A DNA stretch of 46,624 nt, from IMG/VR virus record IMGVR_UViG_3300029858_000359; one strand, 5' to 3'. Both the position numbers and the translations under genes were made by a program. The notes beneath the pieces were generated by a model. The model had not been told where the DNA came from. It did not search any database and saw only the letters and a list, made by a program, of their open reading frames with translations. The stretch is from a virus. Taxonomy: Duplodnaviria; Heunggongvirae; Uroviricota; Caudoviricetes. This document shows positions 698-43,155 of this stretch, one piece after another (within the stretch, counting starts at the first letter, position 1; every line of letters starts with the position of its first letter).

Positions 698-1060
698 GGG
701 GCTGATTCTGGATTCGACGGGATTTGCGAAACCCAAGGTGCATGCCGAGGGGCGGTTGGCCTCGTAAAAAGCCGCAAAAAATAGTCGCAAACGACGAAAA
801 CTACGCTTTAGCAGCTTAATAACCTGCTTAGAGCCCTCTCTCCCTAGCCTCCGCTCTTAGGACGGGGATCAAGAGAGGTCAAACCCAAAAGAGATCGCGT
901 GGAAGCCCTGCCTGGGGTTGAAGCGTTAAAACTTAATCAGGCTAGTTTGTTAGTGGCGTGTCCGTCCGCAGCTGGCAAGCGAATGTAAAGACTGACTAAG
1001 CATGTAGTACCGAGGATGTAGGAATTTCGGACGCGGGTTCAACTCCCGCCAGCTCCACCA
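698..1060 (+). ncRNA. ssrA: tmRNA (SsrA), about 363 nt
   Basis: Starts GGGGCTGATTCTGGATTCGACGGG, contains the tag-encoding stretch GCAAACGACGAAAACTACGCTTTAGCAGCTTAA, ends with tRNA-like arm GGGTTCAACTCCCGCCAGCTCCACCA. Confidence 0.95.
1028..1060. repeat. attL: ssrA 3'-end copy of the 33-bp direct repeat (partner at 41202-41234)
   Basis: CGGACGCGGGTTCAACTCCCGCCAGCTCCACCA recurs at 41202-41234 with one mismatch. Confidence 0.85.
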
Positions 1061-1190
1061 ATCATGATTGGACGGTGTAAGGACAACACCAACAAAAACA
1101 GGAAGTTAGCAGTCTCAGCAGGACACCGACCAGACGGTGAGGAGACAAAAAAGGATACGCAAAGGAGCCGCGGCTCTCAAGTGTGAAAGA

Positions 1191-1216
1191 AGCCCGCAAA
1201 TTGCGGGCTTTTTTAT
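1191..1216 (+). terminator. Rho-independent terminator
   Basis: AGCCCGCAAATTGCGGGCT hairpin followed by TTTTTT. Confidence 0.6.
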
Positions 1217-1269
1217 TGATCAGTCAACAATAAACAGTAACCGAATGAGAATTTAATAAGGATATTCAT

Positions 1270-2301
1270 ATGGAAGCTACTGTGGATTCGATTGATTTTC
1301 TGATCCGTAGTGAAGATGATTTTCTAAACTTTCTGGAAGAAATGAAAGCCCGAGAGGGGCTTGATTCTAAAGAGTTTATTTTCCCTAACGTAAAGTTTGC
1401 AGGCTGGCCATCCTTAGACATAAATGTTAAAGGAGAGCGGTATCATTCATCAATTACATCAGCAATGTTGTTTGGTATGTCAATGCTCAACGAGGAGATA
1501 CAGCGGGCGTTTGCAACCATACGATACGGATCGCAGAATCTTCAACGCTTGACTAATGAAGACAAGCAACGACTTGATATAAATTTTAAAATTAGCGAAG
1601 GTTCTAGTGATGCGGAAGGCACCACTGACAAGATCATCAACGCAGTAACTGATTTTTTGCGAGATACTATGTCTGGACTGAACGGCTGGCAGAAAATGCT
1701 TGTTATAATCACAATGGTTGGCGCGGCCAGCACATGTGGTTATCACTACATTTCAGAAAATGCCGTAACAGAAAGACATGCAACTGATCGGCAGGTTGAA
1801 ATTGCGAAAACCACATCCGATGGCATAAACAAAGCCATAGAAGCAACATTAGATTATAAAATCTATGGGAAATCAGCGATTAGCGATAAAGTTACTAGTC
1901 ACGGACAAGCAGGTAAAAGTGCTTTAGTGAAGCAATTAGCTGCTGATCCTACTGTCGAAACCGTGACTTTAGGAAATGAGAAACTAACACGACAAGACCT
2001 AAATACCTACAACAGCCGACAATCTGTAGATAGAGAACGTAAAGAACGAACTGATATATTTTCCATCAAAGGTGTAACCAGAACAGGGCCAACAAATCAG
2101 GATATTAATATTAACGTTGTTAGGGTCTCTAATGACGAATGCTTCACAATCAAAGCTTCAGCTGATGTTATCACCCAAGATGAGTTGACAGCTATTGTTG
2201 ACGCTTTGTCAAACAACTCTCATATTAAAATCAGTTACTTAGAGGTAATTGAAAAGGGTGCTGTTTCTATAGGTCAGTTCAACACTATTGTTTCAGAATA
2301 A
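1270..2301 (+). CDS. Hypothetical protein, 343 aa, one central hydrophobic helix (prophage-end cargo)
   Basis: Long ORF in AT-rich DNA with upstream TAAGGA ribosome-binding site; hydrophobic stretch WQKMLVIITMVGAASTCGYHYI; no family recognised. Confidence 0.6.
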   Translation: MEATVDSIDFLIRSEDDFLNFLEEMKAREGLDSKEFIFPNVKFAGWPSLDINVKGERYHSSITSAMLFGMSMLNEEIQRAFATIRYGSQNLQRLTNEDKQRLDINFKISEGSSDAEGTTDKIINAVTDFLRDTMSGLNGWQKMLVIITMVGAASTCGYHYISENAVTERHATDRQVEIAKTTSDGINKAIEATLDYKIYGKSAISDKVTSHGQAGKSALVKQLAADPTVETVTLGNEKLTRQDLNTYNSRQSVDRERKERTDIFSIKGVTRTGPTNQDININVVRVSNDECFTIKASADVITQDELTAIVDALSNNSHIKISYLEVIEKGAVSIGQFNTIVSE

Positions 2302-2352
2302 TCACTTAACCCCATTTATGTAGGTTGAGGTTATAAGTCACGGAGACCAGAT

Positions 2353-2697
2353 ATGTCCTTAAAGTATGCACATGAAAAATTTCATACTGCAGTACTTACT
2401 CTTGCGGGCCATGGAAGTATTCAAGAACGCTTGATTAATTCGTATGTTTTTAGCCTTGGGCATCTTAAAACAGCCGATGATATTCCAAATGCCTTACAAA
2501 GCAGGTTCGATGAATTATGTAAGGAACTGACTAAGTTTGATGCCACTGGCGATGAGGGGCGAGTTCAAGCAACAGTATCAAAACTTAACGATTTCGAGAT
2601 CAATAAACTGATCGAAGATATTGTCAGTCTTAACGATGATATTTGCATGAAATTGGCTCTGACGGATGAGACTTACCAAGACATACACCAAAGTTAA
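2353..2697 (+). CDS. Hypothetical protein, 114 aa
   Basis: ORF with GGAG ribosome-binding site 8 nt upstream; follows 1270-2301 after a 51-nt gap and ends at a terminator. Confidence 0.55.
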   Translation: MSLKYAHEKFHTAVLTLAGHGSIQERLINSYVFSLGHLKTADDIPNALQSRFDELCKELTKFDATGDEGRVQATVSKLNDFEINKLIEDIVSLNDDICMKLALTDETYQDIHQS

Positions 2698-2724
2698 TTG
2701 ATTAAATTCAAAAAGTTAACGTTC

Positions 2725-2750
2725 AACCAGCCAGTTTTTGGCTGGTTTAT
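2725..2750. terminator. Bidirectional rho-independent terminator between convergent genes
   Basis: AACCAGCCAGTTTTTGGCTGGTT hairpin with flanking T and A runs. Confidence 0.6.
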
Positions 2751-2781
2751 TGTCTTATAATATTCTTGCTCGAATGATGCA

Positions 2782-2994
2782 CTATTTATGATGTAATCCG
2801 GACATCAGTTCATGGACAAGATTATCTCTTTCATTGTGTTGCAACCGTAAATGCATAGCAAAAAGGTGAGCACTATCCTCATTCCTCTTCAAGCCATGCT
2901 GTTCAAGATACCCGAAAAAACGGCTTCTCTTATCCGCTATTTCCTGAGTCTGACGTGCAACATTTACCAAATTTTCTAGCGTTTTTCTTGGCAT
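2782..2994 (-). CDS. Hypothetical small protein, 70 aa
   Basis: ORF preceded by a strong AGGAGG ribosome-binding site (reverse complement of 2998-3003); no family recognised. Confidence 0.55.
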   Translation of the reverse strand: MPRKTLENLVNVARQTQEIADKRSRFFGYLEQHGLKRNEDSAHLFAMHLRLQHNERDNLVHELMSGLHHK

Positions 2995-3192
2995 ACTATT
3001 TCCTCCTGAAATTGTTGTAATTCACTAGGATATTCATTTTAATTTGTATCATTTAGTACCAAAACCGCTATCAATTAACAAAGCCATCGTTGTGGTTTAC
3101 CTTGCAGCCGTTTTTTGTCATTGACTCTATGTGAAAATAATGAATCATCATGAGATTGGCTCACACGTTCTTGAATTCGACGAGCTGTGTCT

Positions 3193-3747
3193 TTATTTAT
3201 CTCCTGCCGGAAACCTCTGATACAAAGTCGATACGCCAACATCATAGATAATCGCAACTTTCTGGCGCGGAACTCCTGATGCAATTAATCGTCCGGCTTG
3301 TGCCCATTGTTCTGGTGTAAGTTTGGGACGACGTCCACCAATTCGTCCCTGTGCGCGAGCAGCTTCCAGTCCAGCTTTTGTTCGTTCAACAATCAGTTCT
3401 CGTTCCATTTCAGCCAGGGCCCCCATCACATGAAAGAAAAAGCGCCCCATTGGGGTACTGGTATCAATTGAATCCGTCAGACTACGAAAGTTGATGCCTC
3501 GTTCGCGCAACTCCTCCACCAGCACGACAAGATGCCGCATACTGCGCCCCAGTCGGTCCAGTTTCCAGACCACCAGCGTATCACCTGCCGATAATGTCCT
3601 GAGCAGTTTTTTCAGTCCCGGCCTTTCGGACTTTGTACCGCTTATCTTGTCTTCAAAAATCAGCTCGCATCCTGCACAGTTCAGCGCATTACGTTGTAGA
3701 TCTGTGTTCTGGTCATTTGTTGACACACGTACATAGCCAATAAGCAT
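3193..3747 (-). CDS. Site-specific DNA invertase, serine recombinase of the Pin/Gin/Hin/Cin family
   Basis: N-terminus MLIGYVRVSTNDQNTDLQ with catalytic serine motif, C-terminal helix-turn-helix; start set at the second ATG, which has a GGGAGA ribosome-binding site; adjacent to the invertible tail-fibre segment. Confidence 0.9.
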   Translation of the reverse strand: MLIGYVRVSTNDQNTDLQRNALNCAGCELIFEDKISGTKSERPGLKKLLRTLSAGDTLVVWKLDRLGRSMRHLVVLVEELRERGINFRSLTDSIDTSTPMGRFFFHVMGALAEMERELIVERTKAGLEAARAQGRIGGRRPKLTPEQWAQAGRLIASGVPRQKVAIIYDVGVSTLYQRFPAGDK

Positions 3748-3773
3748 GGTAGATCTCCCTGACAAAAGCAGGA

Positions 3774-4307
3774 ATGATGCCATTTGCTCGTTATTTCTGC
3801 ATTTTCATAAACCTTGGTTTGGGAGAAGGCTCAGCATTACCCGGTGGTGTGCCTGTTCCGTGGCCTTCAGCCACTCCGCCAACAGGCTGGCTGAAATGCA
3901 ACGGAGCAGCTTTTTCTGCTGAAGAATACCCGGAACTGGCAAAGGCTTATCCGACAAATAAATTACCTGATTTACGCGGTGAGTTTATTCGTGGCTGGGA
4001 TGACGGACGTGGAGTGGATAACGGAAGGGGATTATTAACGCTTCAGGACGGTGCGATTGTCAGTCATAACCACTATTGGGGAATCTGGACTTCACGAACT
4101 AACGACCAGACTCTGGGAAGTTTTACAGGCACCACGATTTTAAAACAAATCACGCCCCTGTCTCCGGCCATTGACTTCGATAATTACCCAATTCCCAACC
4201 CGGCTATTACAGAGGGTGGTGTTGTTGCGGCAACGACTAAACCTGCAGGTGCGAATGAAACACGCCCACGAAATGTCGCTTTTAACTATATTGTGAGGGC
4301 TGCATAA
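3774..4307 (+). CDS. Alternative tail-fibre C-terminal variable segment, currently not joined to the constant N-terminus (functional part begins at the crossover site near 3813)
   Basis: Contains the conserved tail-fibre motif PWPSATPPTGWLKCNGAAFSAEEYPELAKAYP; reading frame passes through the crossover site (encodes NLGLGE). Confidence 0.75.
   Translation: MMPFARYFCIFINLGLGEGSALPGGVPVPWPSATPPTGWLKCNGAAFSAEEYPELAKAYPTNKLPDLRGEFIRGWDDGRGVDNGRGLLTLQDGAIVSHNHYWGIWTSRTNDQTLGSFTGTTILKQITPLSPAIDFDNYPIPNPAITEGGVVAATTKPAGANETRPRNVAFNYIVRAA
3802..3827. repeat. Invertase crossover site, left end of invertible segment
   Basis: TTTTCATAAACCTTGGTTTGGGAGAA; inverted partner at 5660-5685 shares a 19-bp core AAACCTTGGTTTGGGAGAA; resembles gix/hix sites. 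Confidence 0.8.
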
Positions 4308-4909
4308 TGAATAACGCAGAATTAAACAGTGAATTAATTGCCACTATGGCAGGAGAAATTACTGTTTATAACTTTGACGTCATGAGTCGGGAGTATATTT
4401 CAGCTTCAACTGAATATCTTGCTGTTGGTGTCGGCATTCCGGCATATTCCTGTTTAGATGCTCCAGGCACCTACAAAGCTGGTTATGCAATCTGCCGCTC
4501 TGCAGATTTTAACTCATGGGAATATGTACCAGACCATCGCGGTGAAATCGTCTATAACACCGAAACGGGAGACGCCAAAGAAATCACAACTCCGGGTGAT
4601 TACCCCGAAAAAACAACCACTATCGCCCCGTTAACGCCATACGATAAATGGGATGGTGAGAAATGGGTGACGGATACTGAGACACAGCATAGCGCCGCAG
4701 TAGACGCGGCAGAAGCACAACGTCAGTCACTGATTGATACTGCAATGGCTTCCATTAGTCTGATTCAACTGAAATTGCAGGCCGGGCGGAAGCTGATGCA
4801 GGCAGAGACCACCCGACTTAACACTGTGCTGGATTACATTGACGCGGTGACGGCAACAGATACCAGTACCGCGCCGGATGTCATCTGGCCTGAACTGCCG
4901 GAGGAGTAG
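4307..4909 (+). CDS. Tail fibre assembly protein (partner of the alternative fibre segment)
   Basis: 200-aa ORF directly after the fibre segment; C-terminus LDYIDAVTATDTSTAPDVIWPELPE typical of Tfa proteins. Confidence 0.8.
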   Translation: MNNAELNSELIATMAGEITVYNFDVMSREYISASTEYLAVGVGIPAYSCLDAPGTYKAGYAICRSADFNSWEYVPDHRGEIVYNTETGDAKEITTPGDYPEKTTTIAPLTPYDKWDGEKWVTDTETQHSAAVDAAEAQRQSLIDTAMASISLIQLKLQAGRKLMQAETTRLNTVLDYIDAVTATDTSTAPDVIWPELPEE

Positions 4910-5312
4910 GCCATTCAATATCTGGCGCACTGGAAGTATCGACCAGTTCCAGTGCGTCCAGATAATCCAGCCACAAATTATATTGCGCCAGTTCCTCACC
5001 TTTCAGACGACCAATCGCCGCTTTACCAGGCCATTGTTTACTGTTCATGTATTCGTTGGCCTGATTAACTAATCGCTGTTTATTTGATTCAGCGATTGAG
5101 ATTAATTCTTCGCTGGTAAGTGGTGGCGCATCCTGCCATGCTGGAAAACCATTTTTATCTGAACCAAGTATTTTACCATCAGGCCATGCAACTCCTGCGA
5201 ACTCAGAATAAATAGTAAAGTTTATTTTCGTAGCGTTCTCAGGAATGGTTTGGCTATCTGGTGAAATATAAAATCCCGAATCAGAGGGATTAAAATAATA
5301 TGTCTTTTCCAT
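4881..5312 (-). CDS. Tail fibre assembly protein (partner of the currently expressed fibre)
   Basis: 143-aa ORF; C-terminus LWLDYLDALELVDTSSAPDIEWPTPP, Tfa-like. Confidence 0.8.
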   Translation of the reverse strand: MEKTYYFNPSDSGFYISPDSQTIPENATKINFTIYSEFAGVAWPDGKILGSDKNGFPAWQDAPPLTSEELISIAESNKQRLVNQANEYMNSKQWPGKAAIGRLKGEELAQYNLWLDYLDALELVDTSSAPDIEWPTPPAVQAR

Positions 5313-5314
5313 AG

Positions 5315-5962
5315 TTAATACCCCACAGCCATCCAGTAAATTGAATTTGTTGTAGCAGAAGTGTAAGTAAATCTGATTTTAGTTCTGTTGGTACTTCCAA
5401 TATCAAAGCCCACAGAACGGGCAGAAGGATCATTAGTTGAAATAAGAGCGTTTACCGAACGACAAGCAGCAGGGAAAGCTACAGGTAATGTTATATCAAC
5501 TGTTCCAACACTTCCTCCGGTTGGTGAGACAGAAAAACTCCCCCATTGAATAATCATCCCCCCAGGTAATTTCTGGTATCCATTGGCGGTCAATGAGTTA
5601 CCAAAGCTGTTCATATCCGGTACCTGATTTTCTCCTGTCCCCACATTCCTCTTTGCCGCTTCTCCCAAACCAAGGTTTTCGAGAGCTGTTTTCACCGTGC
5701 CATCCGATTTGATATCGCCAAACGGATTCTTGCGGCTTAACAGCAGCGCACGAAGCGCGGTAAGCAGCTGGTCATGCCGCCCCTTCTCCAGGCTGGCACC
5801 GGATGCCTCCACAACGCTGCAAAGCTCCTCCTGCAACATGTCAAAGTAGTCATCATCCAGATCGGTGGCAGGCGTGCCGGTCTGGGGGTTACCACGGGTA
5901 AAACCGTTCTTACCCGCGCCGAACTTATCCTTCTGCGCGGTTTTCGTGTCTATACGATGCAT
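5315..5962 (-). CDS. Tail fibre protein: constant N-terminus (about 5686-5962) fused to the currently oriented variable C-terminus
   Basis: 215-aa ORF crossing the right crossover site, which encodes ALENLGLGE. Confidence 0.75.
5660..5685. repeat. Invertase crossover site, right end of invertible segment
   Basis: TTCTCCCAAACCAAGGTTTTCGAGAG, inverted repeat of the site at 3802-3827. Confidence 0.8.
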
Positions 5963-5965
5963 GGA

Positions 5966-6550
5966 TTACTCCGGATATTTAAAAATCACATAGGTATGCG
6001 ACGGGCAGAGTTTGTTAAGAACACACTCGACAACGGTGTCCCCCCAGAAGCGCAGCGCGGAATCACAGGGATCGCCACATGTCATCCAGGTGGTGTTGGT
6101 GGCGGCTGGCATGTTGACCTGCCAGTAATACCGCCATTCAGGCGCATTCACCGCGTCAGTACAGGCCGATGAGCAGGTGAACGTGCTTTTGTCGTATCGC
6201 GTGATGTTGGCATCCGGTCTGCCCAGGGCAGCAAGCTGTGCAAGATAAAAATTCTCGTTGATGCCGCCCGCCAGGTTAACCTTCGCATCCAGCCGTTGCT
6301 GACGCTGGCGAAGGGTCTGTGTCCCTGTAGGAATACATTCATCCGGCAGGCCGCACAGACGCTCCCAGCGATTTATCAGTTCGGTGGTGGTGCGCGGATC
6401 CAGCTCCCGCATCAGGGCATCCGCACGCTGATGAACGCGGGTTAATGACGGTGCCGCACCGGCAATCGCCGGATCGCTGGCTGACCACGCCGGACCGGGC
6501 GGCAACAGTGCTGACAACAGACGGATGTAATCATCGTTTGTCACGTCCAT
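5966..6550 (-). CDS. Phage tail protein, DUF2313 / Mu gp48-like
   Basis: 194-aa ORF between baseplate J and tail fibre; sequence reminiscent of YmfQ/gp48 family. Confidence 0.6.
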
Positions 6551-7599
6551 GAAATCGCCCCCAGAACCGCCAGTTCATTTTTCGCAATGGTGATATTGTC
6601 CGCCGGTGCAAGCAACTGATGGCTGTATTCCCCGTTCGCACCGGAAATCGCTTCACTGATACGTGACACCTTCAGTTCTCCCTGCGGATAACCATCACGC
6701 AGCAGGAACGAACGCAACTCCGCGGTGATGGCAGCCCGTATTTCCGGTGTGTCCGGCGTCACACGGATATGAAAATCCACCGTATGTGCCACCGGCCTGA
6801 ACACATACAAATCAGAGCCTGCCACCGGGGCCAGTGGCCCGATATGTTGTCTTGCCGCCGTTTCCGTTGATTCTTCCGGAATGGGATTAATCAGGTCACT
6901 GCTGGCAATCATCACACCGACAGTCCCCGTTCCCATCCAGTGTCGGTATGTCCATGCGCGGGTAATGCCAGGCACTTCTTTAGCCCAGACGACATAGTCC
7001 CCGTCAGCCCCGCCCTGCGGCGTCCAGTAATACCGCTCAATGACGCGGGCGCGCCACGTTTCCAGCTCTTCAGTATCAAATCCGCCTGTCAGGGTGTCAG
7101 CCACACCGGAAGACGGCAGACCATTCACCGGCGTGACCAGGATTAATGCCGTACCGTCGTCAGCGTTACCGACCGCACCTGCACTTGAGCAGGCGATCGG
7201 CACGCGCAGGACACCACCGGAGCTGATTGCATCGTCAGTTGTCGTGTACTGCACCAGGTCATCGCGCTGAATAACACTCCCGGCAGTCACCTTCAGGCCA
7301 TCGCTGACACCTTCCCAGCGCATATACCCGCTGGCAACCGTGGCTCCCTTGCGCGGGCACCGTTTCATCGCAGCATGTCGCCCCAGCCAGGACTCATCGC
7401 ACAGGTCAGGCAGCATGTTCATTGCCAGATAATCGATGTATCCGTAAACCGTATGCAGCGCCGCCGCATACACCTTTGCCCGCACGTCTTCATCCATGCG
7501 CCGGAGCGTGTCGCTGACGTCCAGCCTGGCGAATAAATCGTTACGGAGCATACTGATATTTTCTGCCAGCGTCGGGCGCTGAAATTCACTGTCCGCCAT
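6541..7599 (-). CDS. Baseplate J-like protein (Mu gp47-like)
   Basis: 352-aa ORF in conserved baseplate gene order. Confidence 0.7.
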
Positions 7600-8014
7600 G
7601 CGTTATCGCACTCCACAGATCATCAAAAGAAATCATTACCGGTCCGTCACGACGCCAGAGGGTGATACTGTTACCCAGTTCATTAATCCCGGGGCGGCGG
7701 ATATCCAGATCAATACGGGACACCACGCCGTCATCAATCATCCATTGCAGGCATTCGCGGATATACCCCCTTACCGTCTGCACCAGCTGATTGGTCAGTT
7801 TGCAGCGCTGAAGCAGCCACAGTCGGGAGCCGTAACGGTCATTCTGTACCGCAGGCCAGGTATCCCCCCACCATCCCATCGGGACGTCGGCGTTGTCATC
7901 AGGCTCCGCCCGCCGCCAGGTAAACAGGGAAATCACCACGGCGCGGGTCAGCGGATCCAGCGGTGCGCTGGCACAGGTGCGTTTACCGTTCACCGTCAGC
8001 CACAGTTCCATCAT
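7586..8014 (-). CDS. Baseplate protein, Mu gp46-like
   Basis: 142-aa ORF, position and size. Confidence 0.55.
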   Translation of the reverse strand: MMELWLTVNGKRTCASAPLDPLTRAVVISLFTWRRAEPDDNADVPMGWWGDTWPAVQNDRYGSRLWLLQRCKLTNQLVQTVRGYIRECLQWMIDDGVVSRIDLDIRRPGINELGNSITLWRRDGPVMISFDDLWSAITHGGQ

Positions 8015-8559
8015 GCCTCCATCGCTTTATCAGGTTTGTCGGTGTTACTGCCCTGACCGTTCTCTCTGTGACGATGCCCGTTATAGGCAAGCCGCATCGC
8101 TGACATGGTGGTGCCGCCGGAGTCGCACAGGTCTTTCACCTGTCCTGTCACTTCCAGGTCCATTTCAAAACGTGCTTCAGGTGCATTGCGAAACGTGATC
8201 GTTTTACCTGCACCGTCCACCACGATCCCCTCCCGGGTCAGCGTCACGGACTGCCCCTGATCGTCATAGACAGCCACCTCACCCGTCTGCAGCCCTTTCA
8301 GGCGGTAACGCCGGTCCGACACCGTAACAACCACCGCATGAGAACGGTCACCATCCGGAAACAACACCACCGCTTCCGCACCGCTGTTTGCCCTTGCGGT
8401 AAAACCGTAGGGTTCAAGATGTTCAACCCCGGCTTTGGGTTCACCGGCAATCAGGGACACATCCACGGTCTGACATTTCGTGGCGGCACTGATGCTTTTC
8501 ACCACCGCCCGCCCAATCAGGCCGAGGAGTTGTCGCTGTATGGTTTCAATCGCCTTCAT
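8011..8559 (-). CDS. Baseplate assembly protein V (spike), Mu gp45-like
   Basis: 182-aa ORF; position in module. Confidence 0.6.
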   Translation of the reverse strand: MKAIETIQRQLLGLIGRAVVKSISAATKCQTVDVSLIAGEPKAGVEHLEPYGFTARANSGAEAVVLFPDGDRSHAVVVTVSDRRYRLKGLQTGEVAVYDDQGQSVTLTREGIVVDGAGKTITFRNAPEARFEMDLEVTGQVKDLCDSGGTTMSAMRLAYNGHRHRENGQGSNTDKPDKAMEA

Positions 8560-9638
8560 CAGAACGGGTCCTCCTGTACTCTGGCTTTTTTCTTTTTCCG
8601 CGCGCCGGGGGCTTCGGGTTCAGGCAGATAAGCATCAGGTGGGCCGACACGGATTTCCGTCAGGGTGCCATTCTGGTCCTGAGTAAACGTGACTTCCGAG
8701 ACAAGCAGTTCGGTATTGTCGAAACCACAGACCGGATCGAAGACAATCACCCGCTGGTTGGGCTGCCACAGCGTACCGTTACCCTGTCGCCAGCCCTGCA
8801 CCACATAGGTGGTTTCATCCGTCCGCGCCGCCCGTTGTCGGGCTTCAAAGTCAGCACGCGCAATACAGCCTGCCCCCGTAGCCTGCCCTGTCTGCCTGAT
8901 ATACATCGGACGATAACGGGCAATAAATGCATCCTCTGTGCGGGCCCGCAGCGCGGTGGTGGTGGCCTCACCGAAATCATCGTCGTTTCCGGCACGCTGC
9001 CCCGCCACCTGGTAAACTGAAAACCGCTCCCGGATACTCTTCTCCGTATCACAGGAAAGGATGTTTTCCCCAAGTACCAGCGCGGTATGTGCCCGCGTTG
9101 AGCCAATACCACCAATCACCAGCCTGCCGTGCGGGTCGTCATAAGCCAGCGCCTGCTGCTGACCGAGTATTTTGTTGATCACCTCGATCACCGTTTCACC
9201 GTGATCAGGCTGGACATCCGGAATAACACCCGACGGCGCATTGCTGTTCACCACCTCAATGCCGAAAGGCGCAGCAAGCGCCTGCGCAATCTGTACCAGC
9301 GATCGTCCGTTAAACTGTGTCGGTTCGGCTGCACAGTCAATCAGGTCAGCAGTCAGACTACGTCCGGCAATACCGGTGCTGACCGAACGGGCATCGTAAC
9401 GAACGGGGGTCGCCTCCACCCAGCCGGTGATCACCAGCTCATCACCAATCAGCACTTCCACTTTTGAACCATTTTTAATGCGCGGCTGAAGCGTGGTGAT
9501 ACCCTCATCACCCGGCCACTGGCGGGTGATCTCCACGCTGAAATCCCGCGCCAGCCGTTCAATACCGGCACCGATGCGCACCGATGTCCAGCCATTCCAC
9601 TCCCGGCCATTTACCCGTAGCGTGACATTGTCGTTCAT
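8559..9638 (-). CDS. Tail or baseplate hub protein, Mu P (gp44)-like
   Basis: 359-aa ORF following the DNA circulation protein gene. Confidence 0.55.
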   Translation of the reverse strand: MNDNVTLRVNGREWNGWTSVRIGAGIERLARDFSVEITRQWPGDEGITTLQPRIKNGSKVEVLIGDELVITGWVEATPVRYDARSVSTGIAGRSLTADLIDCAAEPTQFNGRSLVQIAQALAAPFGIEVVNSNAPSGVIPDVQPDHGETVIEVINKILGQQQALAYDDPHGRLVIGGIGSTRAHTALVLGENILSCDTEKSIRERFSVYQVAGQRAGNDDDFGEATTTALRARTEDAFIARYRPMYIRQTGQATGAGCIARADFEARQRAARTDETTYVVQGWRQGNGTLWQPNQRVIVFDPVCGFDNTELLVSEVTFTQDQNGTLTEIRVGPPDAYLPEPEAPGARKKKKARVQEDPF

Positions 9639-10963
9639 TGCACTGGCACCTTCAGAGGGATCACCGGCACAAAGCCGGGATGCGTAATGGCATTACGCCG
9701 GATAATGTCCGCGTCACGCGCCGCGTTATCAAACCAGGTCGCCGCCAGCACCAGCGCGGGTAAAACCTCATCCGGTGTGCGCTGAATGATCCGTGCAGAC
9801 TGTTCAAGGCGCGTGTTGATATCCGCATTCAGATCTGCTTTCACCCGGCGCAGCGCCAGAAACAGCGCATCGCTGGTTGTACGGGACAACTCCTTATCAA
9901 TTGCCGTATTCAGTGTGTCGCGAATGTCAGTCAGTTCTTCCCACGTCGGCAGGTCAACCGTGTTTTTCACCGCCGGTGCATTGTTCAGTGCCGGATGCGT
10001 GACGGAAGGCCAGCCAGTGCTCTGCGCGGGTGTTGTTGCCTGCCCCACTGCGGAATTCTGCATCACCGCGGAAGTTGTTGGCGCAGGCAATCGGGTGACG
10101 GCATACGCCGCTTCGCTGATTGCGGTCGTACGAAGGGTGCTGGCAACCACGTTACGCTGCTGCGTCGCCGTGGCGGTGGTTTTACTGTCCGTTTTCCAGA
10201 CGCCGCGCGGTTGCAGATCGCTGCCGAGGCTGACACCGGAAAGCGTTTTGATCATGGTGACCAGGTCGCTGGCGTTACCATAAAGGCGTTTCCCGGTACG
10301 CCACATTTTCTGCACCTGCTCAACGAAATTTTTGCCTGACGATGGCGGCGGCAGAAGTACCGAGATATCCCCCTGCAACAGCCTGGCGGCATCCGATACG
10401 GCAGAATCCACCACTTTCATCGCATCAGAAACATACCCCAGCATTATGCTGGCATTACCGATAACGTCGTTCTGCACGAAATCCGCCACACCATCGATAC
10501 TGAAACCGCTGAAGCTGTCACTGATGCAGTCATCCAGTGCAGAACAGGATGACATCAGCGTCTGCGCCGTCGCCGCACCTGATGTGGGGTAAGAGAGTTC
10601 TCCTGCTTCGACAAACTTCAGGTCAAAGCGGACAATACGCCCTTCACTTTTCGATGTGCTGACCCGAACTTCCCCGTCAACACAGACTTTCAGCTCACCG
10701 TATGTCGGATGGACAAGCGTGCCGGGACCGGGTTTATTCAGCGCGTCAATCAGGCGATCGCGCTGGTCAAAGCAGTCATCTCCCACCACATAAGCCGTGA
10801 TGGACGGGCGGAAAGTGACTTTTCCCAGATCTTCGGTATAGGGTTTGTCGCGGTTCGGGTATTCGTGCGTTTCCACACGGCGACCTGTTCCCGCACTTTC
10901 TTCTTCGACCTTAAACGGCACGCCGCGAAATGACGCGTCCTGAAGCCTGTCTTTCCACGTCAT
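9635..10963 (-). CDS. DNA circulation protein, Mu N (gp43)-like
   Basis: N-terminus MTWKDRLQDASFRGVPFKVEEESAGTGRRVETHEYPNRDKPYTEDLG typical of the DNA-circulation N-terminal family. Confidence 0.7.
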   Translation of the reverse strand: MTWKDRLQDASFRGVPFKVEEESAGTGRRVETHEYPNRDKPYTEDLGKVTFRPSITAYVVGDDCFDQRDRLIDALNKPGPGTLVHPTYGELKVCVDGEVRVSTSKSEGRIVRFDLKFVEAGELSYPTSGAATAQTLMSSCSALDDCISDSFSGFSIDGVADFVQNDVIGNASIMLGYVSDAMKVVDSAVSDAARLLQGDISVLLPPPSSGKNFVEQVQKMWRTGKRLYGNASDLVTMIKTLSGVSLGSDLQPRGVWKTDSKTTATATQQRNVVASTLRTTAISEAAYAVTRLPAPTTSAVMQNSAVGQATTPAQSTGWPSVTHPALNNAPAVKNTVDLPTWEELTDIRDTLNTAIDKELSRTTSDALFLALRRVKADLNADINTRLEQSARIIQRTPDEVLPALVLAATWFDNAARDADIIRRNAITHPGFVPVIPLKVPVQ

Positions 10964-31033: not shown

Positions 31034-31494
31034 TCTTCACCTGATGCAGCCCGCTTACTGCTTTTCCGTAAACACCGTTCACGACGCGCCAGAAAATTGT
31101 TTCGTTCTGGCTGGGAGTGGCTTTCACGGAATGCCGCCATCCACACCGTTGCAGCACGACGGTATAAGCCCCTGGACTCCAGTTCTTCCGCCTGGCGGGT
31201 CAGGCACAAAATCACCCGCGGGTCGTTAGTGCCGACATAGAAATTGCGCACAGGTCTGGTTTCACGAACTGGTTGTGGTTCCGGATCCTGCGCTCTCTCA
31301 GTCAGGCGCGGGAAATGTCTGTGTGTATCTCCTTCACAACGGTGAGCCACACGCCCACTCTGACGTAACTTGCTTGCTGACTGCAGAACGCGCTGCCGTG
31401 AGTAACCTGCAAAAGCATCCGCAATGTCTCCGGAAGTACAGCCCGGATGGGCTTCAATGAATTTCTGAACGTCATTTAACAGACTCATGATCAC
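31000..31494 (-). CDS. Hypothetical phage early protein, 164 aa
   Basis: ORF downstream of the initiator gene; arginine-rich; no family recognised. Confidence 0.4.
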   Translation of the reverse strand: MIMSLLNDVQKFIEAHPGCTSGDIADAFAGYSRQRVLQSASKLRQSGRVAHRCEGDTHRHFPRLTERAQDPEPQPVRETRPVRNFYVGTNDPRVILCLTRQAEELESRGLYRRAATVWMAAFRESHSQPERNNFLARRERCLRKSSKRAASGEEWYLSGNYVGA

Positions 31495-32432
31495 CCCCTG
31501 AATCCTGCCGGGATCTGGCTGTAGTCCACATTGTCGTAACTGGCTTTGAAGTACGGGTCTTCGCGTTTTTCTGTGTACGTGCTGACGGACGGCGATAAGC
31601 GCAGGGAAAGCTCATCCCATTTTTCCCGCAGCTTCGACGGGCTGAGCACGTTACGGCACCAGAACGGATCGCGGCTGACGCGGCTGTACATCTCGCAGAT
31701 TTGTTTGTGAGTACGACCATCCTGCACACACATCAGGCGAATTTCGTTTGCCCAGGCTGTCCAGTTAGGTTCTTTGGGACGAACCACCTCGCCGTCACAT
31801 TCGGCGGCCTGCTCGTACAGGGCGATGATTTTTTTCCAAAGCCACTGTGCGCAGGTCAAATCATCCTGCGTCCCCCACTGGCGCTTTTTAGGGCTGAATA
31901 CAACCGCATCAGGATGGAGAGTTAAAAAATCCTGTCCATCCGTCTGCGTGTCCGGTTGCGAAGCGTCCGGACGAGAAGGTTTTTTATCTGACGGATCATG
32001 TTTTGATTTTACTGACGGATCCCCGCCAGATTCTGACGGGTGAAAACCCGCTTTTTTGCCAGATTTCGACGCATCAAATTTTGACGGGTCAGATTTTGAT
32101 GCGTCAGATTTTGACGGGTCAGAATCTGACAGTTGAGAAAATGCCGCTGCCTGAAGCTTCGCAACGTTAAGCTGATAAACATTCGACGCATTACGGTTAC
32201 CCTGGCGACGCGCCTTACGCGTTAACCAGCCTTCTGCTTCCAGCCGTGCGATAGCCGTTCTGACGGTACTCATCCCCGCGCCAATCTGGCGGGCAATGGT
32301 TTCAATTGATGGCCAGCACACACCTTCGTCATTACTGAAATCAGCCAGGCGGGCCATAATTGCCACGCTGGATAACTTCATGCCTGACGCAGCGCAACCA
32401 TCCCATACATAGCCGGTTAATTTAGTGCTCAT
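31491..32432 (-). CDS. Replication initiator, lambda O-like, with internal origin iterons
   Basis: N-terminal helix-turn-helix region; coding sequence contains about 8 tandem 15-bp repeats encoding a repetitive SDPSKSDASKSD linker. Confidence 0.7.
   Translation of the reverse strand: MSTKLTGYVWDGCAASGMKLSSVAIMARLADFSNDEGVCWPSIETIARQIGAGMSTVRTAIARLEAEGWLTRKARRQGNRNASNVYQLNVAKLQAAAFSQLSDSDPSKSDASKSDPSKFDASKSGKKAGFHPSESGGDPSVKSKHDPSDKKPSRPDASQPDTQTDGQDFLTLHPDAVVFSPKKRQWGTQDDLTCAQWLWKKIIALYEQAAECDGEVVRPKEPNWTAWANEIRLMCVQDGRTHKQICEMYSRVSRDPFWCRNVLSPSKLREKWDELSLRLSPSVSTYTEKREDPYFKASYDNVDYSQIPAGFRG
31985..32140. repeat. Origin-like iterons (about 15-bp tandem repeats, consensus near AGATTTTGACGGGTC)
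   Basis: TCTGACGGATC, AGATTCTGACGGGTG, AGATTTCGACGCATC, AAATTTTGACGGGTC, AGATTTTGATGCGTC, AGATTTTGACGGGTC, AGAATCTGACAGTTG in tandem. Confidence 0.7.
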
Positions 32433-35224: not shown

Positions 35225-35863
35225 CTCTATTCCCTTACATTTCAGGTTTCGGCTCAGGGATCGGTGCTGGTCTCTGATTTACCGGAACATGAAATTTTTC
35301 ATTGCTATCTACGTACATATTTCCTTCCTACCTGTTGTTGGGATATCCAGATTATACCGAATCCTTGTTGTTGGGGAATAACCAGGTCCACCTCGCCTGA
35401 TGTGGCTAAAAGCAGGCACATAACAGCTAAGTATTTTCAACCAGAGAGAATCCTTAGCGTTGTGGTGAATGCGGCTCAGCGCACGCGGGTTAAGGTTAAG
35501 GCTGACAGTCGACCTTCTGTGGATACCCACCCGTCTGGTGTACAACCTTCGCCAGGCACCGGGAGGCACCCGGCACCACAACTTTATGCTGTGTGTTGTC
35601 TTGGCGGTACCAGCTTGTACCCTTGCTTCCGGCTGGTACCGTCCTTTTTACAAAACAGAGAAGAGCATCATCGGACGACGGGCTCATAACCCAATCCATC
35701 CGGGCGGCTGCCACCGCAGGTGTTCTTCTCTGTTTTGTGGAGAAACTAACCGCCCCTACGGGGGCATTTATGGAAATGTAATTGACTCAATAATCGCCGG
35801 ACGGTGAGGGCTTCCTTTTACCCGAATTCAGCGCGGTGCAGCGCATATAACGTGGAGAACAAA

Positions 35864-37012: not shown

Positions 37013-37231
37013 GTGGAGAAACATATGCTGAACCTCGATTGTGTTCCTATCTCAACTTATTGCAAAGAAACTGGCGAAACTCCTGAAGCAATAAACAAAC
37101 GTGTACAGCGCGGTGTTTGGCGTGAAGGTGTTCAGGTTTTAAAGGTTGAAGGCGTTAAGGAGAGGTGGATTGATCTTAGTGAGGTTGCAAAATGGGCCAG
37201 ACAAAACTGCTCAAACTACCGCGCGGCGTAA
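37013..37231 (+). CDS. Excisionase (Xis-like)
   Basis: 72-aa basic protein with GGAG ribosome-binding site, overlapping the start of the integrase gene. Confidence 0.65.
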   Translation: MEKHMLNLDCVPISTYCKETGETPEAINKRVQRGVWREGVQVLKVEGVKERWIDLSEVAKWARQNCSNYRAA

Positions 37232-38358
37232 CAATCAGGAAACACCGCCAGGGCGAAACGATCAATATAACTTTCACCTACAAAGGCGTTAAATGTCGTG
37301 AGCCTCTTTCCAATCTGGAAGTAACACCAAAGAACATTAAATACGCCGAGCGCACACTCGGCGAAATTCATAATAAGATCGAAAGGGGAACATTCATTTA
37401 TGCGGAATATTTTCCCCGTTCTGCTCGTTTGAAAATTTTTGGTAATGCTGCTGCAGGCAAAACGGTAAAAATGTACCTGGACGAATACCTTGAAATCTGC
37501 GAAACGAGAAAACTTTCACCATCTACGATTGGTGGTTATAAAAAATGCCGTAGTGCGTTAGCCTCACTCCACATTTGCCCTGCAAGTGAATTAACACCAG
37601 CAATCCTGAAAGCGTGGATTCAAAGCCAGAAAACGACCTTAAAAACAATTCGCAACCAGTTATCTTTCCTGCGGTCAGCACTTGATGAAGCCGTAACCGA
37701 TGGGGTACTTCAAATTAACCCCGTATCGTTGGTAACTGCTTCGCGCTACCAAAGTGATAAGTCAGAAGCAGAAAGCAGCTATGTGGTTGATCCGCTATCA
37801 CCAGCAGAAGTTGATGCATTACTAGCAGCAGCCGGAAACAAACAATGGGAAAATCTGTTCCGGTTCGCCATACATACAGGCCTGCGTAGTTCTGAATTAT
37901 GTGCCCTACGATGGCATGATATCGACTTTGTTGGAAAAACAGCCCATGTTCAGAGCGCAAGTGTTGTCGGAGTTATCAAAGGAACAAAGACAAAAGCCGG
38001 TACCCGTAAAGTTGAACTGACTGAAGAAGCAATGTTGGCGTTGATAAACCAGAAGCCATTTACATTCATGAAGGATGCTACTGTCTTTGAAGATCCAAAG
38101 ACCAATAAACCCTGGGCAAGTGCTGATGCAATTAGGAAAAAAGCATGGGTGCCAACATTGCGAAAAGCAGGTATTCGTTACAGAAACCCATATCAAACCA
38201 GGCATACATTCGCCACCAGACATATCAGCCGGGGAGCAAACCTGTTTTGGCTTGCAGCTCAAATGGGGCATAAAGGGCCTGAGATGCTTTTCAGGCACTA
38301 TGGCTCATATCTGAAGGAATATGATGGACAAACAAGCTTGAAGAAGATAACAATATAA
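37192..38358 (+). CDS. Tyrosine integrase of the prophage
   Basis: 388 aa; C-terminal catalytic region RHTFATRHISRGANLFWLAAQMGHKGPEMLFRHYGSY. Confidence 0.9.
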   Translation: MGQTKLLKLPRGVTIRKHRQGETINITFTYKGVKCREPLSNLEVTPKNIKYAERTLGEIHNKIERGTFIYAEYFPRSARLKIFGNAAAGKTVKMYLDEYLEICETRKLSPSTIGGYKKCRSALASLHICPASELTPAILKAWIQSQKTTLKTIRNQLSFLRSALDEAVTDGVLQINPVSLVTASRYQSDKSEAESSYVVDPLSPAEVDALLAAAGNKQWENLFRFAIHTGLRSSELCALRWHDIDFVGKTAHVQSASVVGVIKGTKTKAGTRKVELTEEAMLALINQKPFTFMKDATVFEDPKTNKPWASADAIRKKAWVPTLRKAGIRYRNPYQTRHTFATRHISRGANLFWLAAQMGHKGPEMLFRHYGSYLKEYDGQTSLKKITI

Positions 38359-38375
38359 TCCAAGCATGAAACTAT

Positions 38376-38400
38376 TGGCCACAATTTGTGGCCATTTTAC
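38376..38400 (+). terminator. Perfect 19-bp palindrome followed by T-run between int and the OLD-like gene (terminator or operator)
   Basis: TGGCCACAATTTGTGGCCA followed by TTTTAC. Confidence 0.45.
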
Positions 38401-38416
38401 GGAGCAAGATAGAAAC

Positions 38417-40150
38417 ATGGCAAATCAAATTACCAAACTAAAAAATATAAATGTTGTGAAGTTTCGCGGACTGAAAAATATAAACATCGAGTTTGGTTCT
38501 CGCCTAACTGTTATTTGTGGTAAAAATGGCACATCTAAATCCACAATTCTTGGCATTATCGCCCAAATATTTAGCTTTACAAAGGACTTTACCAAAAACC
38601 CTGAGACTGATTTAACACAATATAAAACATTAACAAATGGCAGCTTCAAGTCAGCTTTCAGCGAACATTTTAGGCTTTCAGAACAATTTGATGTTCCTGG
38701 TTCAATGGACGTCAAAATTAGTGTCTATGATGGTGCATCGAACAAACATCTTGAAAAACTAACATTAGGTTTATACAGCTACAGTGACAGAGATAAATCA
38801 AGGCCTGTAGTCAGGGGAAATGATTCAATACCGGAAAAAAACCAAAGTAGAAACGTTACTCATCCTGTTATTTTTTTAAGCTTAGCACGACTTCTTCCTA
38901 TTACATTAAGGACTGATTACTCAACACGGGATGTTCAGTACATCAATGAAAATTCTGATGAAATCAGAATGATGAGTAACCAACTCTTACTAAAAAACAA
39001 TGGAAGCTCAGTAACAGCAACAAAAGGTACTATCGATTCAATGGTTGTCCATGGTGACAATTATGATCACCAATCAGTATCTGTTGGTGAAGATAATGTT
39101 GGACAATTAATCCAAGCAATTTTTTCATTTAAAAGATTGAAGGAAACTTATTCTGATTATCATGGCGGAATATTGTTAATTGATGAAGCCGATGCAGGTC
39201 TTTTCCCTGCTGCACAGTTAGAGCTAATTAATATTCTAACTAAAGCAGCAAAACAATACGATCTGCAAATAATCATGACCTCGCACTCTCCATTAATAAT
39301 AGAGGATATCTATAATCGTTCAAAACAAGATAGTGATAGCTTTAAAACAATATATCTTACAGACACATATGGAGATATTAAAACAAAGAATAATCTTTCA
39401 TGGACAGATATCCACGCTGATTTACATGTTGAAACTGTAAAAATTAATGATGACATTTGTCTTCCAAAGGCAAATGTATATTTTGAAGACAAAGAAGGTT
39501 TCGACTTTTTCAAACAATTGATAACAGATCGAAAAATAAATAAAATATTAAATCCATTAGGGAATATAAATATTAGCTGCTCTGCCATGCTTGACTTAAT
39601 GGCAAGAAAAATACCAGAATTTACAGCTAAAAGCTTGATCGTCTTAGACGGTGATGTTGTTCACGACAATAGTGCTAATGCAAAAAAAGCCAAAAAAGAA
39701 AAAAACTTATGTTTGCTTCCAAGCACCTTACCTCCAGACCAAATGATTTTTGAGTTTTTATATAATTTACCACCTGATGATGCATATTGGGAAAATAAAA
39801 ATAAATTTACAAAAGCTGTTTTTATGAAAACAGCTAAAGACATAATTGCAACGCTAAAGATTGGTAACGCTCCGATTGATTTAAAAATCCTTATAGATAA
39901 TTATAAAAAAGTTAACAAAAACCATGGCGGGATAGTTAGAAAACTGTTTAAAGATTTTGCACATACGACTCAATTTCAGGCCCAAGTAAAAGGGCGAGTT
40001 AAAGATAACCCATATCGATATTGGGTCGAGAAAAATCCTGTGCAATCGGATAGCTTCAAGAATGAACTAATAAAGAGTCTTAAAGTTATTATGACAAGTG
40101 GACATGGTGTCGATTCTGCTACCATCTCATCATATCTGTCAGATAACTAA
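38417..40150 (+). CDS. OLD-family nuclease-like protein: N-terminal ABC/AAA-type ATPase plus C-terminal TOPRIM-like domain
   Basis: Walker A GKNGTSKST, Walker B ILLIDEADAG, TSHSP signature, C-terminal FEDKEG and LIVLDGDVVHD (Glu and DxD TOPRIM-like); start at MANQITK (ORF track start 38366 lacks a ribosome-binding site). Confidence 0.7.
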   Translation: MANQITKLKNINVVKFRGLKNINIEFGSRLTVICGKNGTSKSTILGIIAQIFSFTKDFTKNPETDLTQYKTLTNGSFKSAFSEHFRLSEQFDVPGSMDVKISVYDGASNKHLEKLTLGLYSYSDRDKSRPVVRGNDSIPEKNQSRNVTHPVIFLSLARLLPITLRTDYSTRDVQYINENSDEIRMMSNQLLLKNNGSSVTATKGTIDSMVVHGDNYDHQSVSVGEDNVGQLIQAIFSFKRLKETYSDYHGGILLIDEADAGLFPAAQLELINILTKAAKQYDLQIIMTSHSPLIIEDIYNRSKQDSDSFKTIYLTDTYGDIKTKNNLSWTDIHADLHVETVKINDDICLPKANVYFEDKEGFDFFKQLITDRKINKILNPLGNINISCSAMLDLMARKIPEFTAKSLIVLDGDVVHDNSANAKKAKKEKNLCLLPSTLPPDQMIFEFLYNLPPDDAYWENKNKFTKAVFMKTAKDIIATLKIGNAPIDLKILIDNYKKVNKNHGGIVRKLFKDFAHTTQFQAQVKGRVKDNPYRYWVEKNPVQSDSFKNELIKSLKVIMTSGHGVDSATISSYLSDN

Positions 40151-40157
40151 TTGATTA

Positions 40158-40196
40158 AAAAGGGCTTTATGTGATGGCCACAAAGCCCTTTTTTTG
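40158..40196 (+). terminator. Rho-independent terminator after the OLD-like gene
   Basis: AAAGGGCTTT-loop-AAAGCCCTTT followed by TTTTTT. Confidence 0.65.
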
Positions 40197-40229
40197 ATAT
40201 ACTTTAGATCTGACATTTAGAGGTATCAT

Positions 40230-41129
40230 ATGCGTTTTAACACCCCACTTCGCTATCCTGGCGGTAAAGGCAAGCTTGCAAATTTCATGCTTCGGCTTAT
40301 TGAAGAAAATAATCTTTCGCCTATACATTATGCCGAACCATATGCTGGGGGTGCTGGTTTAGCATTGAAACTGTTACATCTAAATGCAGCTGAAAAAATC
40401 ATCCTTAATGATATTAATATTTCTGTTTATGCTTTTTGGCACAGTGTATTAAATCATGCAGATCAATTATGTTCTTTAATTGAAAGAACTGAAGTTACAA
40501 TGGATGAATGGTTTAGGCAGAAAGATATAATTAATAATCCTAAAGACCATGATCTTTTAACAATTGGTTTCTCAACCTTTTTTCTCAATAGAACAAATCG
40601 TTCTGGAATATTAAAAGGTGGAGTAATTGGCGGTAAAAATCAAGAAGGGAAATGGAAGCTTGACGCTCGCTATAATAAGAGTGATTTGATTTCTCGAATC
40701 CATAAAATATCAGAAAATCGTCACAGAATAGATTTATATAACATGGATGCAATTGATTTCATTAAAAAAATAGTTATTCAATTGCCACAAAACTCATTAA
40801 CATATTTGGATCCACCTTATTACATAAAAGGTAAAGGTTTATATATCAACCATTATAATCATGATGATCATGTTAGGGTTGCAAAAGTCGTACAGAATAA
40901 TATTAAAACACCTTGGATTGTTTCTTACGATAACACTCCTGAGATCCAAGCTATGTATAAGACATCATCATTAGTATATGGAATAAACTACAGTGCTCAA
41001 GATCGGTACAAAGGATCTGAGGTAATGTTCTTCAGTGAACGATTGAAAATCTTTAAAACAGATGATCCAACTAAGGTAAAAGCGCCTGTATTTAAAAGAG
41101 GATGTGTTGACGACCACATCCAGACATAA
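40230..41129 (+). CDS. Dam-family (alpha-class) N6-adenine DNA methyltransferase
   Basis: Motifs RYPGGKGKL, EPYAGGAG (AdoMet binding) and DPPY (catalytic), order as in Dam; AGAGG ribosome-binding site. Confidence 0.8.
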   Translation: MRFNTPLRYPGGKGKLANFMLRLIEENNLSPIHYAEPYAGGAGLALKLLHLNAAEKIILNDINISVYAFWHSVLNHADQLCSLIERTEVTMDEWFRQKDIINNPKDHDLLTIGFSTFFLNRTNRSGILKGGVIGGKNQEGKWKLDARYNKSDLISRIHKISENRHRIDLYNMDAIDFIKKIVIQLPQNSLTYLDPPYYIKGKGLYINHYNHDDHVRVAKVVQNNIKTPWIVSYDNTPEIQAMYKTSSLVYGINYSAQDRYKGSEVMFFSERLKIFKTDDPTKVKAPVFKRGCVDDHIQT

Positions 41130-41201
41130 AAGGAGCCGCAAAAGATCCGCAGAATAAAATGGTTAGTATTAATCGTTTTATTTCAGCTAATTATAAAAAT
41201 A

Positions 41202-41234
41202 CGGACTCGGGTTCAACTCCCGCCAGCTCCACCA
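41202..41234. repeat. attR of the prophage and attL of the following P4-type island: copy of the ssrA 3' end
   Basis: CGGACTCGGGTTCAACTCCCGCCAGCTCCACCA, 32 of 33 identical to 1028-1060. Confidence 0.85.
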
Positions 41235-41399
41235 CTTTTTAGTTGTTTGAAGTTCAATGAAGTCTACTAAGCCCACACAGCACAAGCTCTGCGGGCTTTT
41301 TTACGTCTATTGTCGTCCAGTGAGAATTGCTGAGAACTACGAGTTATGGCACCCTGAATGGGACCCACTAAGAAGGGTCCAAAAACCGAGGGTCCCAAA

Positions 41400-42629: not shown

Positions 42630-42667
42630 GTATCATAATAGCTAATATAATCCTGAAGGTAAAGAAA

Positions 42668-43084
42668 ATGGAAACCCTATTCAAAGTTTTTGAAAAATTT
42701 AGTTCCAGACCACTTTTTTTTATTTTTTTCGGACTCTCACTTTGTGAATTTTTTCAGAAACAATCTGTTCTGATGAATCCATCAGCAGATAACATCGCGA
42801 AATTATTCGCAGCCATGATATTAGTTGTTTTTTTTACTTGGGGATTTGAATGGCTAATCTTCAAGTTCAATGTAAACCTTGAACCTCATGATCAAGGCGA
42901 TATTGGACCAACAATTGGAACGGCTACTTTAGCTGTATACTTAGTTTATGCCTTTCACTTTCTCAGTGAAAATCCTGAAGCATTAAATTTAAAGTTATTA
43001 ACTAACTCTGGCTTTATATACAGCACAACTCTATTATTATTCTCATTAGAATGCATGAAGCTTAGAAGACTTAAACAAAAATAA
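42668..43084 (+). CDS. Hypothetical polytopic membrane protein, 138 aa
   Basis: AT-rich ORF with GAAGG ribosome-binding site; several hydrophobic helices. Confidence 0.5.
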   Translation: METLFKVFEKFSSRPLFFIFFGLSLCEFFQKQSVLMNPSADNIAKLFAAMILVVFFTWGFEWLIFKFNVNLEPHDQGDIGPTIGTATLAVYLVYAFHFLSENPEALNLKLLTNSGFIYSTTLLLFSLECMKLRRLKQK

Positions 43085-43155
43085 ACAACATCATTGTGAT
43101 GATAAATATAAAATAGGCATGGCGAAAAAAAATCACCACGCCTAAAATATAATAA

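Follow-up and report, generated by a model that had tools for sequence, protein, structure and literature searches.

The window analysed here, a stretch of 46,624 nucleotides from the virus record IMGVR_UViG_3300029858_000359 (Caudoviricetes), carries beside the invertase gene pinE a tail-fibre locus that is very probably a site-specific inversion switch of the Pin type (Hin/Gin/Cin/Pin family), belonging to a temperate myovirus. We observed all parts of the switch, compatible reading frames, an invertase that is intact and natural genomes in which the segment is flipped exactly at the crossover sites; the tail-fibre switch is real and probably active. A preliminary description, made from the letters alone, had ascribed the region to the mechanism of the Mu G segment and the e14 P-region, and our analysis supports this assignment, as all parts were found and the inverted allele exists in other E. 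coli with its breakpoints at the sites. The system is already known from the e14 P-region with its Pin invertase and is an ordinary one, and dozens of complete E. coli genomes already carry the cassette combination in annotated form.

Two inverted crossover sites bound the segment

The switch is delimited by a 20-nt inverted repeat, 100% complementary, whose arms were located by a repeat finder at 3809-3828 and 5659-5678 and which sits within two 26-mers that both fit the 12+2+12 layout of Hin/Gin-type sites:

3802-3827: pin-proximal 26-bp crossover site, TTTTCATAAACC-TT-GGTTTGGGAGAA
5660-5685: pin-distal 26-bp crossover site, TTCTCCCAAACC-AA-GGTTTTCGAGAG, inside the fibre gene, where it encodes ...ENLGLGE
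3814-5673: invertible segment, 1,860 bp from core dinucleotide to core dinucleotide

The cores TT and AA are reverse complements, the sites standing in inverted orientation as the preliminary description had it. The 19-mer TTCTCCCAAACCAAGGTTT has exactly two copies in the window when up to 3 mismatches are allowed, one on each strand, against an expectation of 0 in 100 shuffles, and no further copy of the central palindrome AAACCWWGGTTT was found in the window. A multiple-inversion system of the Min or shufflon type is ruled out by there being just two sites within the window. The Mu gix site, retrieved with the same pattern (TTCCTGTAAACCGAGGTTTTGGATAA), has a 26-bp layout that aligns with both sites.

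The pin-proximal site carries a C at window base 3813, beside its core, where K-12 e14, strain 24AR0142 and the isolates HCP5S3_I2 and LCP30S3_I5 have G and the isolates JE86-ST05 and JE86-ST02 have another variant; a scan for the proximal site in a contig collection with one genome per species returned 3 loci only, all with the G allele. With the C, the perfect inverted repeat grows from 15-16 to 20 nt and the central 12 bp form a perfect palindrome, so that the site becomes more symmetric, not less. Since the exact 60-mer with C at 3813 recurs in 21 other records among about 900 matching E. coli records, this base is a real minority allele, and an assembly artefact as its origin is ruled out.

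Both orientations of the segment occur in natural genomes

We searched 5,426 complete E. coli genomes with window positions 3000-6600, both as observed and inverted in silico, and counted an arrangement when it was colinear over at least 80% of the query. The observed arrangement was present in 13 genomes and the inverted one in 20. The best match overall was that of strain 24AR0142 to the inverted query (100% coverage, 99.9% identity): in its alignment to the window, positions 1029-3828 are colinear, 3809-5678 are reversed and 5659-10600 are again colinear at 100%, the flanks being colinear at 99.9-100%. Because the colinear and reversed blocks meet at 3809-3828 and 5659-5678, the switch points lie inside the 20-nt repeat.

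Segment orientation is the sole difference between sister isolates in two further cases, JE86-ST05 and JE86-ST02 from Japan and HCP5S3_I2 and LCP30S3_I5 from UK pigs, the flanks being 100% identical within each pair for 10.6 kb to one side of the segment and for 10.9 or 12.3 kb to the other. In the relatives, the base outside the core is G at the proximal site and C at the distal site, and each of the two stays with its flank in both orientations, which confines the exchange to the shared 15-nt stretch from the core dinucleotide inward (core plus inner half-site). An exchange confined in this way is what cutting at the central dinucleotide should produce, whereas general recombination should not. 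By extension, the strain that carries the window would be expected to switch as well. With sister isolates in the databases that differ by nothing else than a flip, comparative-genomics pipelines should call such a difference phase variation and not misassembly.

The segment holds two convergent fibre cassettes

Between the sites lie two convergent cassettes, each made up of a fibre C-terminus and a chaperone gene of the Caudo_TAP family, and the constant part of the fibre gene lies outside them:

5315-5962, minus strand: expressed fibre gene, 215 residues, with a Gp53-like_C tip
5674-5962, minus strand: constant fibre N-terminus, 96 codons, baseplate-proximal module
5315-5659, minus strand: expressed variable fibre C-terminus, Gp53-like_C (Pfam PF21882, 3e-18)
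4881-5312, minus strand: chaperone of the expressed cassette, 143 residues (Caudo_TAP 4.7e-30; phrog_188 2.1e-52)
3828-4307, plus strand: silent fibre C-terminus with collar domain, stfE-like (Pfam Collar 9.2e-16)
4307-4909, plus strand: chaperone of the collar cassette, tfaE-like, 200 residues (Caudo_TAP 4.8e-30; phrog_105, tail fibre assembly, 1.3e-94)

The Collar and Gp53-like_C domains and the two Caudo_TAP genes bear out the earlier view of two divergent fibre C-termini, each with its own chaperone. When 3814-5673 is inverted in silico the reading frame is kept, and a fibre of 260 residues replaces that of 215; the junction reads ...ENLGLGE|AAKRN... as present and ...|GSALPGG... after inversion, and the 260-residue product matches PHROG tail collar fibre families at about 1e-78.

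A constant N-terminus of about 93 residues had been placed outside the segment, in agreement with the 93 codons that we count before the outer edge of the distal site and the 96 before the crossover dinucleotide. The accompanying remark that this part is unusually short does not hold for fibres of the e14/SfV type, where it matches those of K-12 StfP and JE86, and is correct only relative to Mu and P1. Fibre residues 1-101 match K-12 StfP (with one substitution) and the JE86-ST05 fibre, and right after ENLGLGE the identity to K-12 StfP and the JE86 fibre falls to about 25%. The constant module is homologous to residues 42-113 of Mu S (32% identity over 72 residues, E 2e-08) and recurs at the start of many PHROG phage fibre families. 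The crossover presumably falls at the end of a baseplate-attachment module, so that nearly all of the remaining fibre would be exchangeable. One tip is of the Gp53-like_C family and the other of the Collar family, and the two would be expected to bind different receptors. In Mu and P1 the two orientations confer different host ranges, and by analogy with these phages the switch described here would likewise alter host range.

The invertase and a candidate recombinational enhancer

The preliminary description had also named a Pin/Gin-type invertase adjoining the segment, and this gene was readily confirmed:

3193-3747, minus strand: pinE, serine DNA invertase, 184 residues, outside the segment and transcribed away from it
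3658-3729, in the 5' end of pinE: putative Fis-dependent recombinational enhancer, matching +19..+90 of cin

The pinE product contains the Pfam domains Resolvase (1.8e-51) and HTH_7 (4e-13), and its best match in the PDB is Gin (3uj3, 1.3e-93). It is 98% identical to K-12 PinE, 82% to P1 Cin and 78% to Mu Gin; the difference from K-12 PinE amounts to 4 of the 184 residues, none of them invariant, and Ser9 and all other family-invariant residues are kept. Judged by its sequence the invertase is intact, with no lesion. An ORF (open reading frame) lister gave a version of 196 residues that begins at an upstream ATG, and both the family alignment and the RefSeq twin locus, where pinE is annotated with 555 nt, put the start at 3747.

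Positions +19..+90 of cin are annotated in the P1 record as the enhancer of C-segment inversion, and 3658-3729 is identical to it at 55 of 72 nt; the stretch codes for the conserved N-terminus, so this is weak evidence. At +22 and +71 of pinE there are G-N13-C 15-mers 49 bp apart, conserved in K-12 and Mu, although in coding sequence such spacing is indecisive. A dependence of inversion on Fis and the enhancer would be expected by analogy with related systems. A consensus scan for promoters and terminators over positions 2900-6700 gave counts equal to the shuffled expectation, with nothing convincing upstream of pinE or of the pin-proximal ORF (see below), so that little can be read from it.

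Proposed mechanism and alternative explanations

In the mechanism that we propose, the fibre gene, which lies on the minus strand, is expressed from the late tail operon, and the 96 codons at its start (from 5962 to 5674) stay fixed. PinE would bind both 26-bp sites, cut at the central AA/TT dinucleotide and exchange strands, whereupon the 1,860-bp segment would flip; by analogy with Gin, Cin and Hin, host Fis bound to the enhancer in the 5' end of pinE would be required. In the present orientation, the constant part is joined to the Gp53-like C-terminus, followed by the 143-residue chaperone, to give the 215-residue fibre, and in the inverted orientation to the collar-domain C-terminus, followed by the 200-residue chaperone, to give the 260-residue fibre. 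Since either tip would be possible by inversion, a population of lysogens would release virions with either tip, a form of bet-hedged host range. Against this account it can be said that the pin-proximal site bears a minority base (C at 3813), that the assignment of the enhancer depends on homology within coding sequence, and that the consensus scan gave no promoter for pinE or for the silent cassette.

A first alternative, compatible with the inversion switch as such, is that the switch acts, in addition or even chiefly, to defend the host against other phages, and it centres on an ORF that starts outside the segment:

3774-4307, plus strand: pin-proximal ORF, with its ATG outside the segment and in frame across the proximal site into the silent cassette

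In RefSeq this ORF bears the annotation "phage tail protein", and its counterpart in flipped twins that of "gp53-like"; its equivalents in e14 are stfE and StfE2. Translation from the ATG at 3774, running into whichever cassette is silent, would produce a free fragment able to bind and mask surface receptors, on the model of the chimeric StfE2 that inversion of the e14 P-segment makes and that has been proposed to block T2 adsorption (PMC12529663). The ORF is indeed open and in frame across the site, and the inverted twin has a corresponding "gp53-like" ORF of 399 nt. Its leader, however, comprises just 14 codons with no promoter predicted upstream in the consensus scan, and the JE86 relatives, whose annotated starts are different, do not conserve the upstream one. 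Moreover, the variable part of K-12 StfP differs from that found here (no DNA match, about 25% protein identity), so that the T2 result is not transferable, and the prophage looks intact, so that a role in the virion suffices. We therefore regard this function as unlikely. A wider version, in which the switch of an intact, inducible e14/SfV-type prophage may both alternate the virion tip and express the silent cassette from the ATG at 3774 as a free fragment protecting the lysogen, with the C at 3813 possibly shifting the rate or bias of inversion, is in our estimate a long shot.

It is very improbable that the locus is a frozen relic in which sites and gene persist and the segment no longer inverts in this lineage. 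The single assembly does display one orientation, and base 3813 does differ from the common allele, but the C allele raises the symmetry of the site and is found in 21 other records, both sites are intact, and the invertase, without a lesion, departs from the functional K-12 PinE at none of the invariant positions. The preliminary description had named, as what would refute the switch, reads with a single orientation across many isolates together with inactivating mutations in the invertase; what we found is an intact invertase and both orientations, the latter among near-identical prophages and sister isolates. Least credible, at a probability close to nil, is that RecA-mediated homologous recombination between short inverted repeats, and not the invertase, causes the flips between genomes: perfect inverted repeats of 15-20 nt are present, but this is below the length that RecA uses efficiently, and the repeats are exactly conserved Hin/Gin-type sites that adjoin the matching invertase. 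In K-12, pinE and pinE pinQ mutants lock the segment (PMC12529663). This locked phenotype, the comparison of sister isolates and the positions of the breakpoints contradict both the relic and the RecA explanation.

Relation to the K-12 e14 P-region

As recommended in the preliminary description, the locus was aligned to the invertible regions of Mu, P1 and e14; the e14 region proved to be its orthologue, and Mu and P1 share its logic. In K-12 the e14 element is a cryptic prophage, and its P-region (pinE, stfP/ycfK, tfaP, tfaE, stfE) agrees with the locus in gene order and strands. The comparison takes in the baseplate genes upstream of the fibre:

5966-6550, minus strand: Mu gp48-like baseplate protein (Phage_Mu_Gp48 2.3e-26), directly upstream of the fibre and annotated ymfQ in relatives
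6541-7599, minus strand: Baseplate J/Mu gp47-like protein (Baseplate_J 1.3e-51), part of the late tail operon running into the fibre

The distal site in K-12 stfP is identical to 5660-5685 and the proximal site is so at 25 of 26, the exception being the base next to the core, G in e14 and C here. DNA identity reaches 93.5% over pinE and the start of stfE, 86% over tfaE (86-93% over the stfE/tfaE-type cassette overall) and 96.6% over the constant stfP part, ymfQ and jayE; other e14 fragments (ymfL/M, terminase, portal) match elsewhere in the window at 97-98%. In contrast, divergent Gp53-like sequence takes the place of the stfP-type variable tip, and this tip, together with the beginning of its chaperone gene, differs from K-12 e14, with no DNA match across window positions 5048-5652. 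The exact cassette pair of K-12 e14 is thus not present here, and because cassette content varies among e14-type loci, the pair is not truly defining of the P-region. The two elements differ further in that e14 is a 15-kb deletion remnant at icd, whereas the window contains a 40-kb, apparently complete prophage at ssrA, and in that the position of mcrA is taken by unknown cargo genes. The window apparently holds a complete relative of the phage from which e14 derives.

Inversion of the e14 segment is well documented. Goldberg et al. described it as the one clear inversion polymorphism in K-12 cultures, using whole-genome sequencing and PCR (polymerase chain reaction) (PMC4272514), and Kirigo et al. 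(2025) reported that PinE and PinQ invert the 1797-bp e14 segment at TTGGTTTGGGAGAAGG and that 33% of 562 deposited genomes are inverted at this segment (PMC12529663). The sequence TTGGTTTGGGAGAAGG is present here as well. The significance of the locus beyond its correct annotation is small, that of a clean, probably active, classical Pin/e14 fibre switch. Unlike the K-12 remnant, however, this switch resides in an apparently complete prophage, which could be used to test the host ranges of the two tips and the reported defence role of e14 inversion in a still-functional phage.

Comparison with Mu, P1 and other phages

The Mu G segment (gin, S/U, S'/U') resembles the locus in its constant N-terminus with two convergent cassettes of C-terminus and chaperone, in an invertase gene that adjoins the segment on the outside and is transcribed away from it, and in the 26-bp layout of gix, of which 18 of 26 positions are identical to the distal site. 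It differs in the size of the segment (about 3 kb versus 1.86 kb), in its unrelated tips and in the length of the constant part, 170 residues (509 nt) of a 504-residue fibre versus 96 of 215 or 260. The same cassette logic is found in the C segment of P1 (cin, cixL/cixR, Sc/Sv/Sv'), but this segment measures 4.2 kb with a constant part of 453 residues (1361 nt), and cixL overlaps the 3' end of cin, which consequently reads towards the segment, opposite to the arrangement here.

At 91% DNA identity, the P2-like Escherichia phage pro483 (NC_028943.1) shares the invertase, the collar tip plus chaperone and the terminal part of the second chaperone, and Klebsiella Kp48xx phages share the cassette region at about 90%; the region common to pro483 and the Kp48xx phages spans window positions 3320-5092. 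Their virion backbones are nevertheless unrelated to that encoded in the window. Shared across different backbones, the switch module is a mobile mosaic block that is joined to different constant fibre parts and moves between phage types and genera.

The Shigella phages SfV, SfI, SfII and SfIV share the morphogenetic module at about 97% identity over 17.5 kb, a stretch that takes in ymfQ, the constant N-terminus of the fibre and the sequence of the site. In SfV, SfI and SfII there was no match to the invertase or the second cassette, and since the matching sequence ends about 50 nt inside the segment, their fibre appears to be fixed. SfI and SfV have already been linked with e14 in the literature, and SfI has been isolated and imaged as virions (PMC3636060). 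Because the virion module of the window is about 97% identical to that of SfI, SfII and SfV, of which SfI is known as virions, the phage carrying the fibre is likely functional.

The surrounding prophage and neighbouring elements

The SfV/e14-like E. coli prophage measures 40.2 kb; at one end lies the 3' end of ssrA (1023-1060) and at the other a 92% copy of this sequence (41197-41234). The records vB_EcoM-689R6 and vB_EcoM-720R4 cover its virion module to 80-89%. Its integrase gene lies near the right end:

37192-38358: prophage integrase

Between attL (ssrA) and pinE, positions 1061-3190 hold three cargo ORFs (1270-2301 and 2353-2697 on the plus strand, 2782-2994 on the minus strand), in a slot beside pinE where e14 has the restriction gene mcrA and the prophages of JE86 and HCP5S3 have a GIY-YIG gene. 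None of the three gave a Pfam or PADLOC match, and the 343-residue product of the first has as its sole match phrog_6191, a family of unknown function; these genes may form an uncharacterised defence or moron cassette. At the integrase end, positions 38366-41129 encode an AAA ATPase of 594 residues with PtuA/AriA/GajA-like matches, and after it a D12 methyltransferase with a PADLOC match to PD-Lambda-5_B (5e-124); the two are probably a PD-Lambda-5-type defence pair carried as prophage cargo.

Directly past attR, a second integrase gene (41358-42629) is followed by genes with Response_reg_2 and HEF_HK domains (41358-46624 in all), so that a second island sits in tandem at ssrA. Within the prophage, positions 32060-32134 consist of overlapping 30-nt copies in a 15-nt register (CAGATTTTGACGGGT-like units) inside an ORF of 313 residues (31491-32432), an array that looks like lambdoid origin iterons within a replication-initiator gene. 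Finally, an imperfect 25-nt inverted repeat (35650-35738; 84% complementary, 39-nt spacer) in the early region, near the repressor/integrase side, may be an operator or a terminator.

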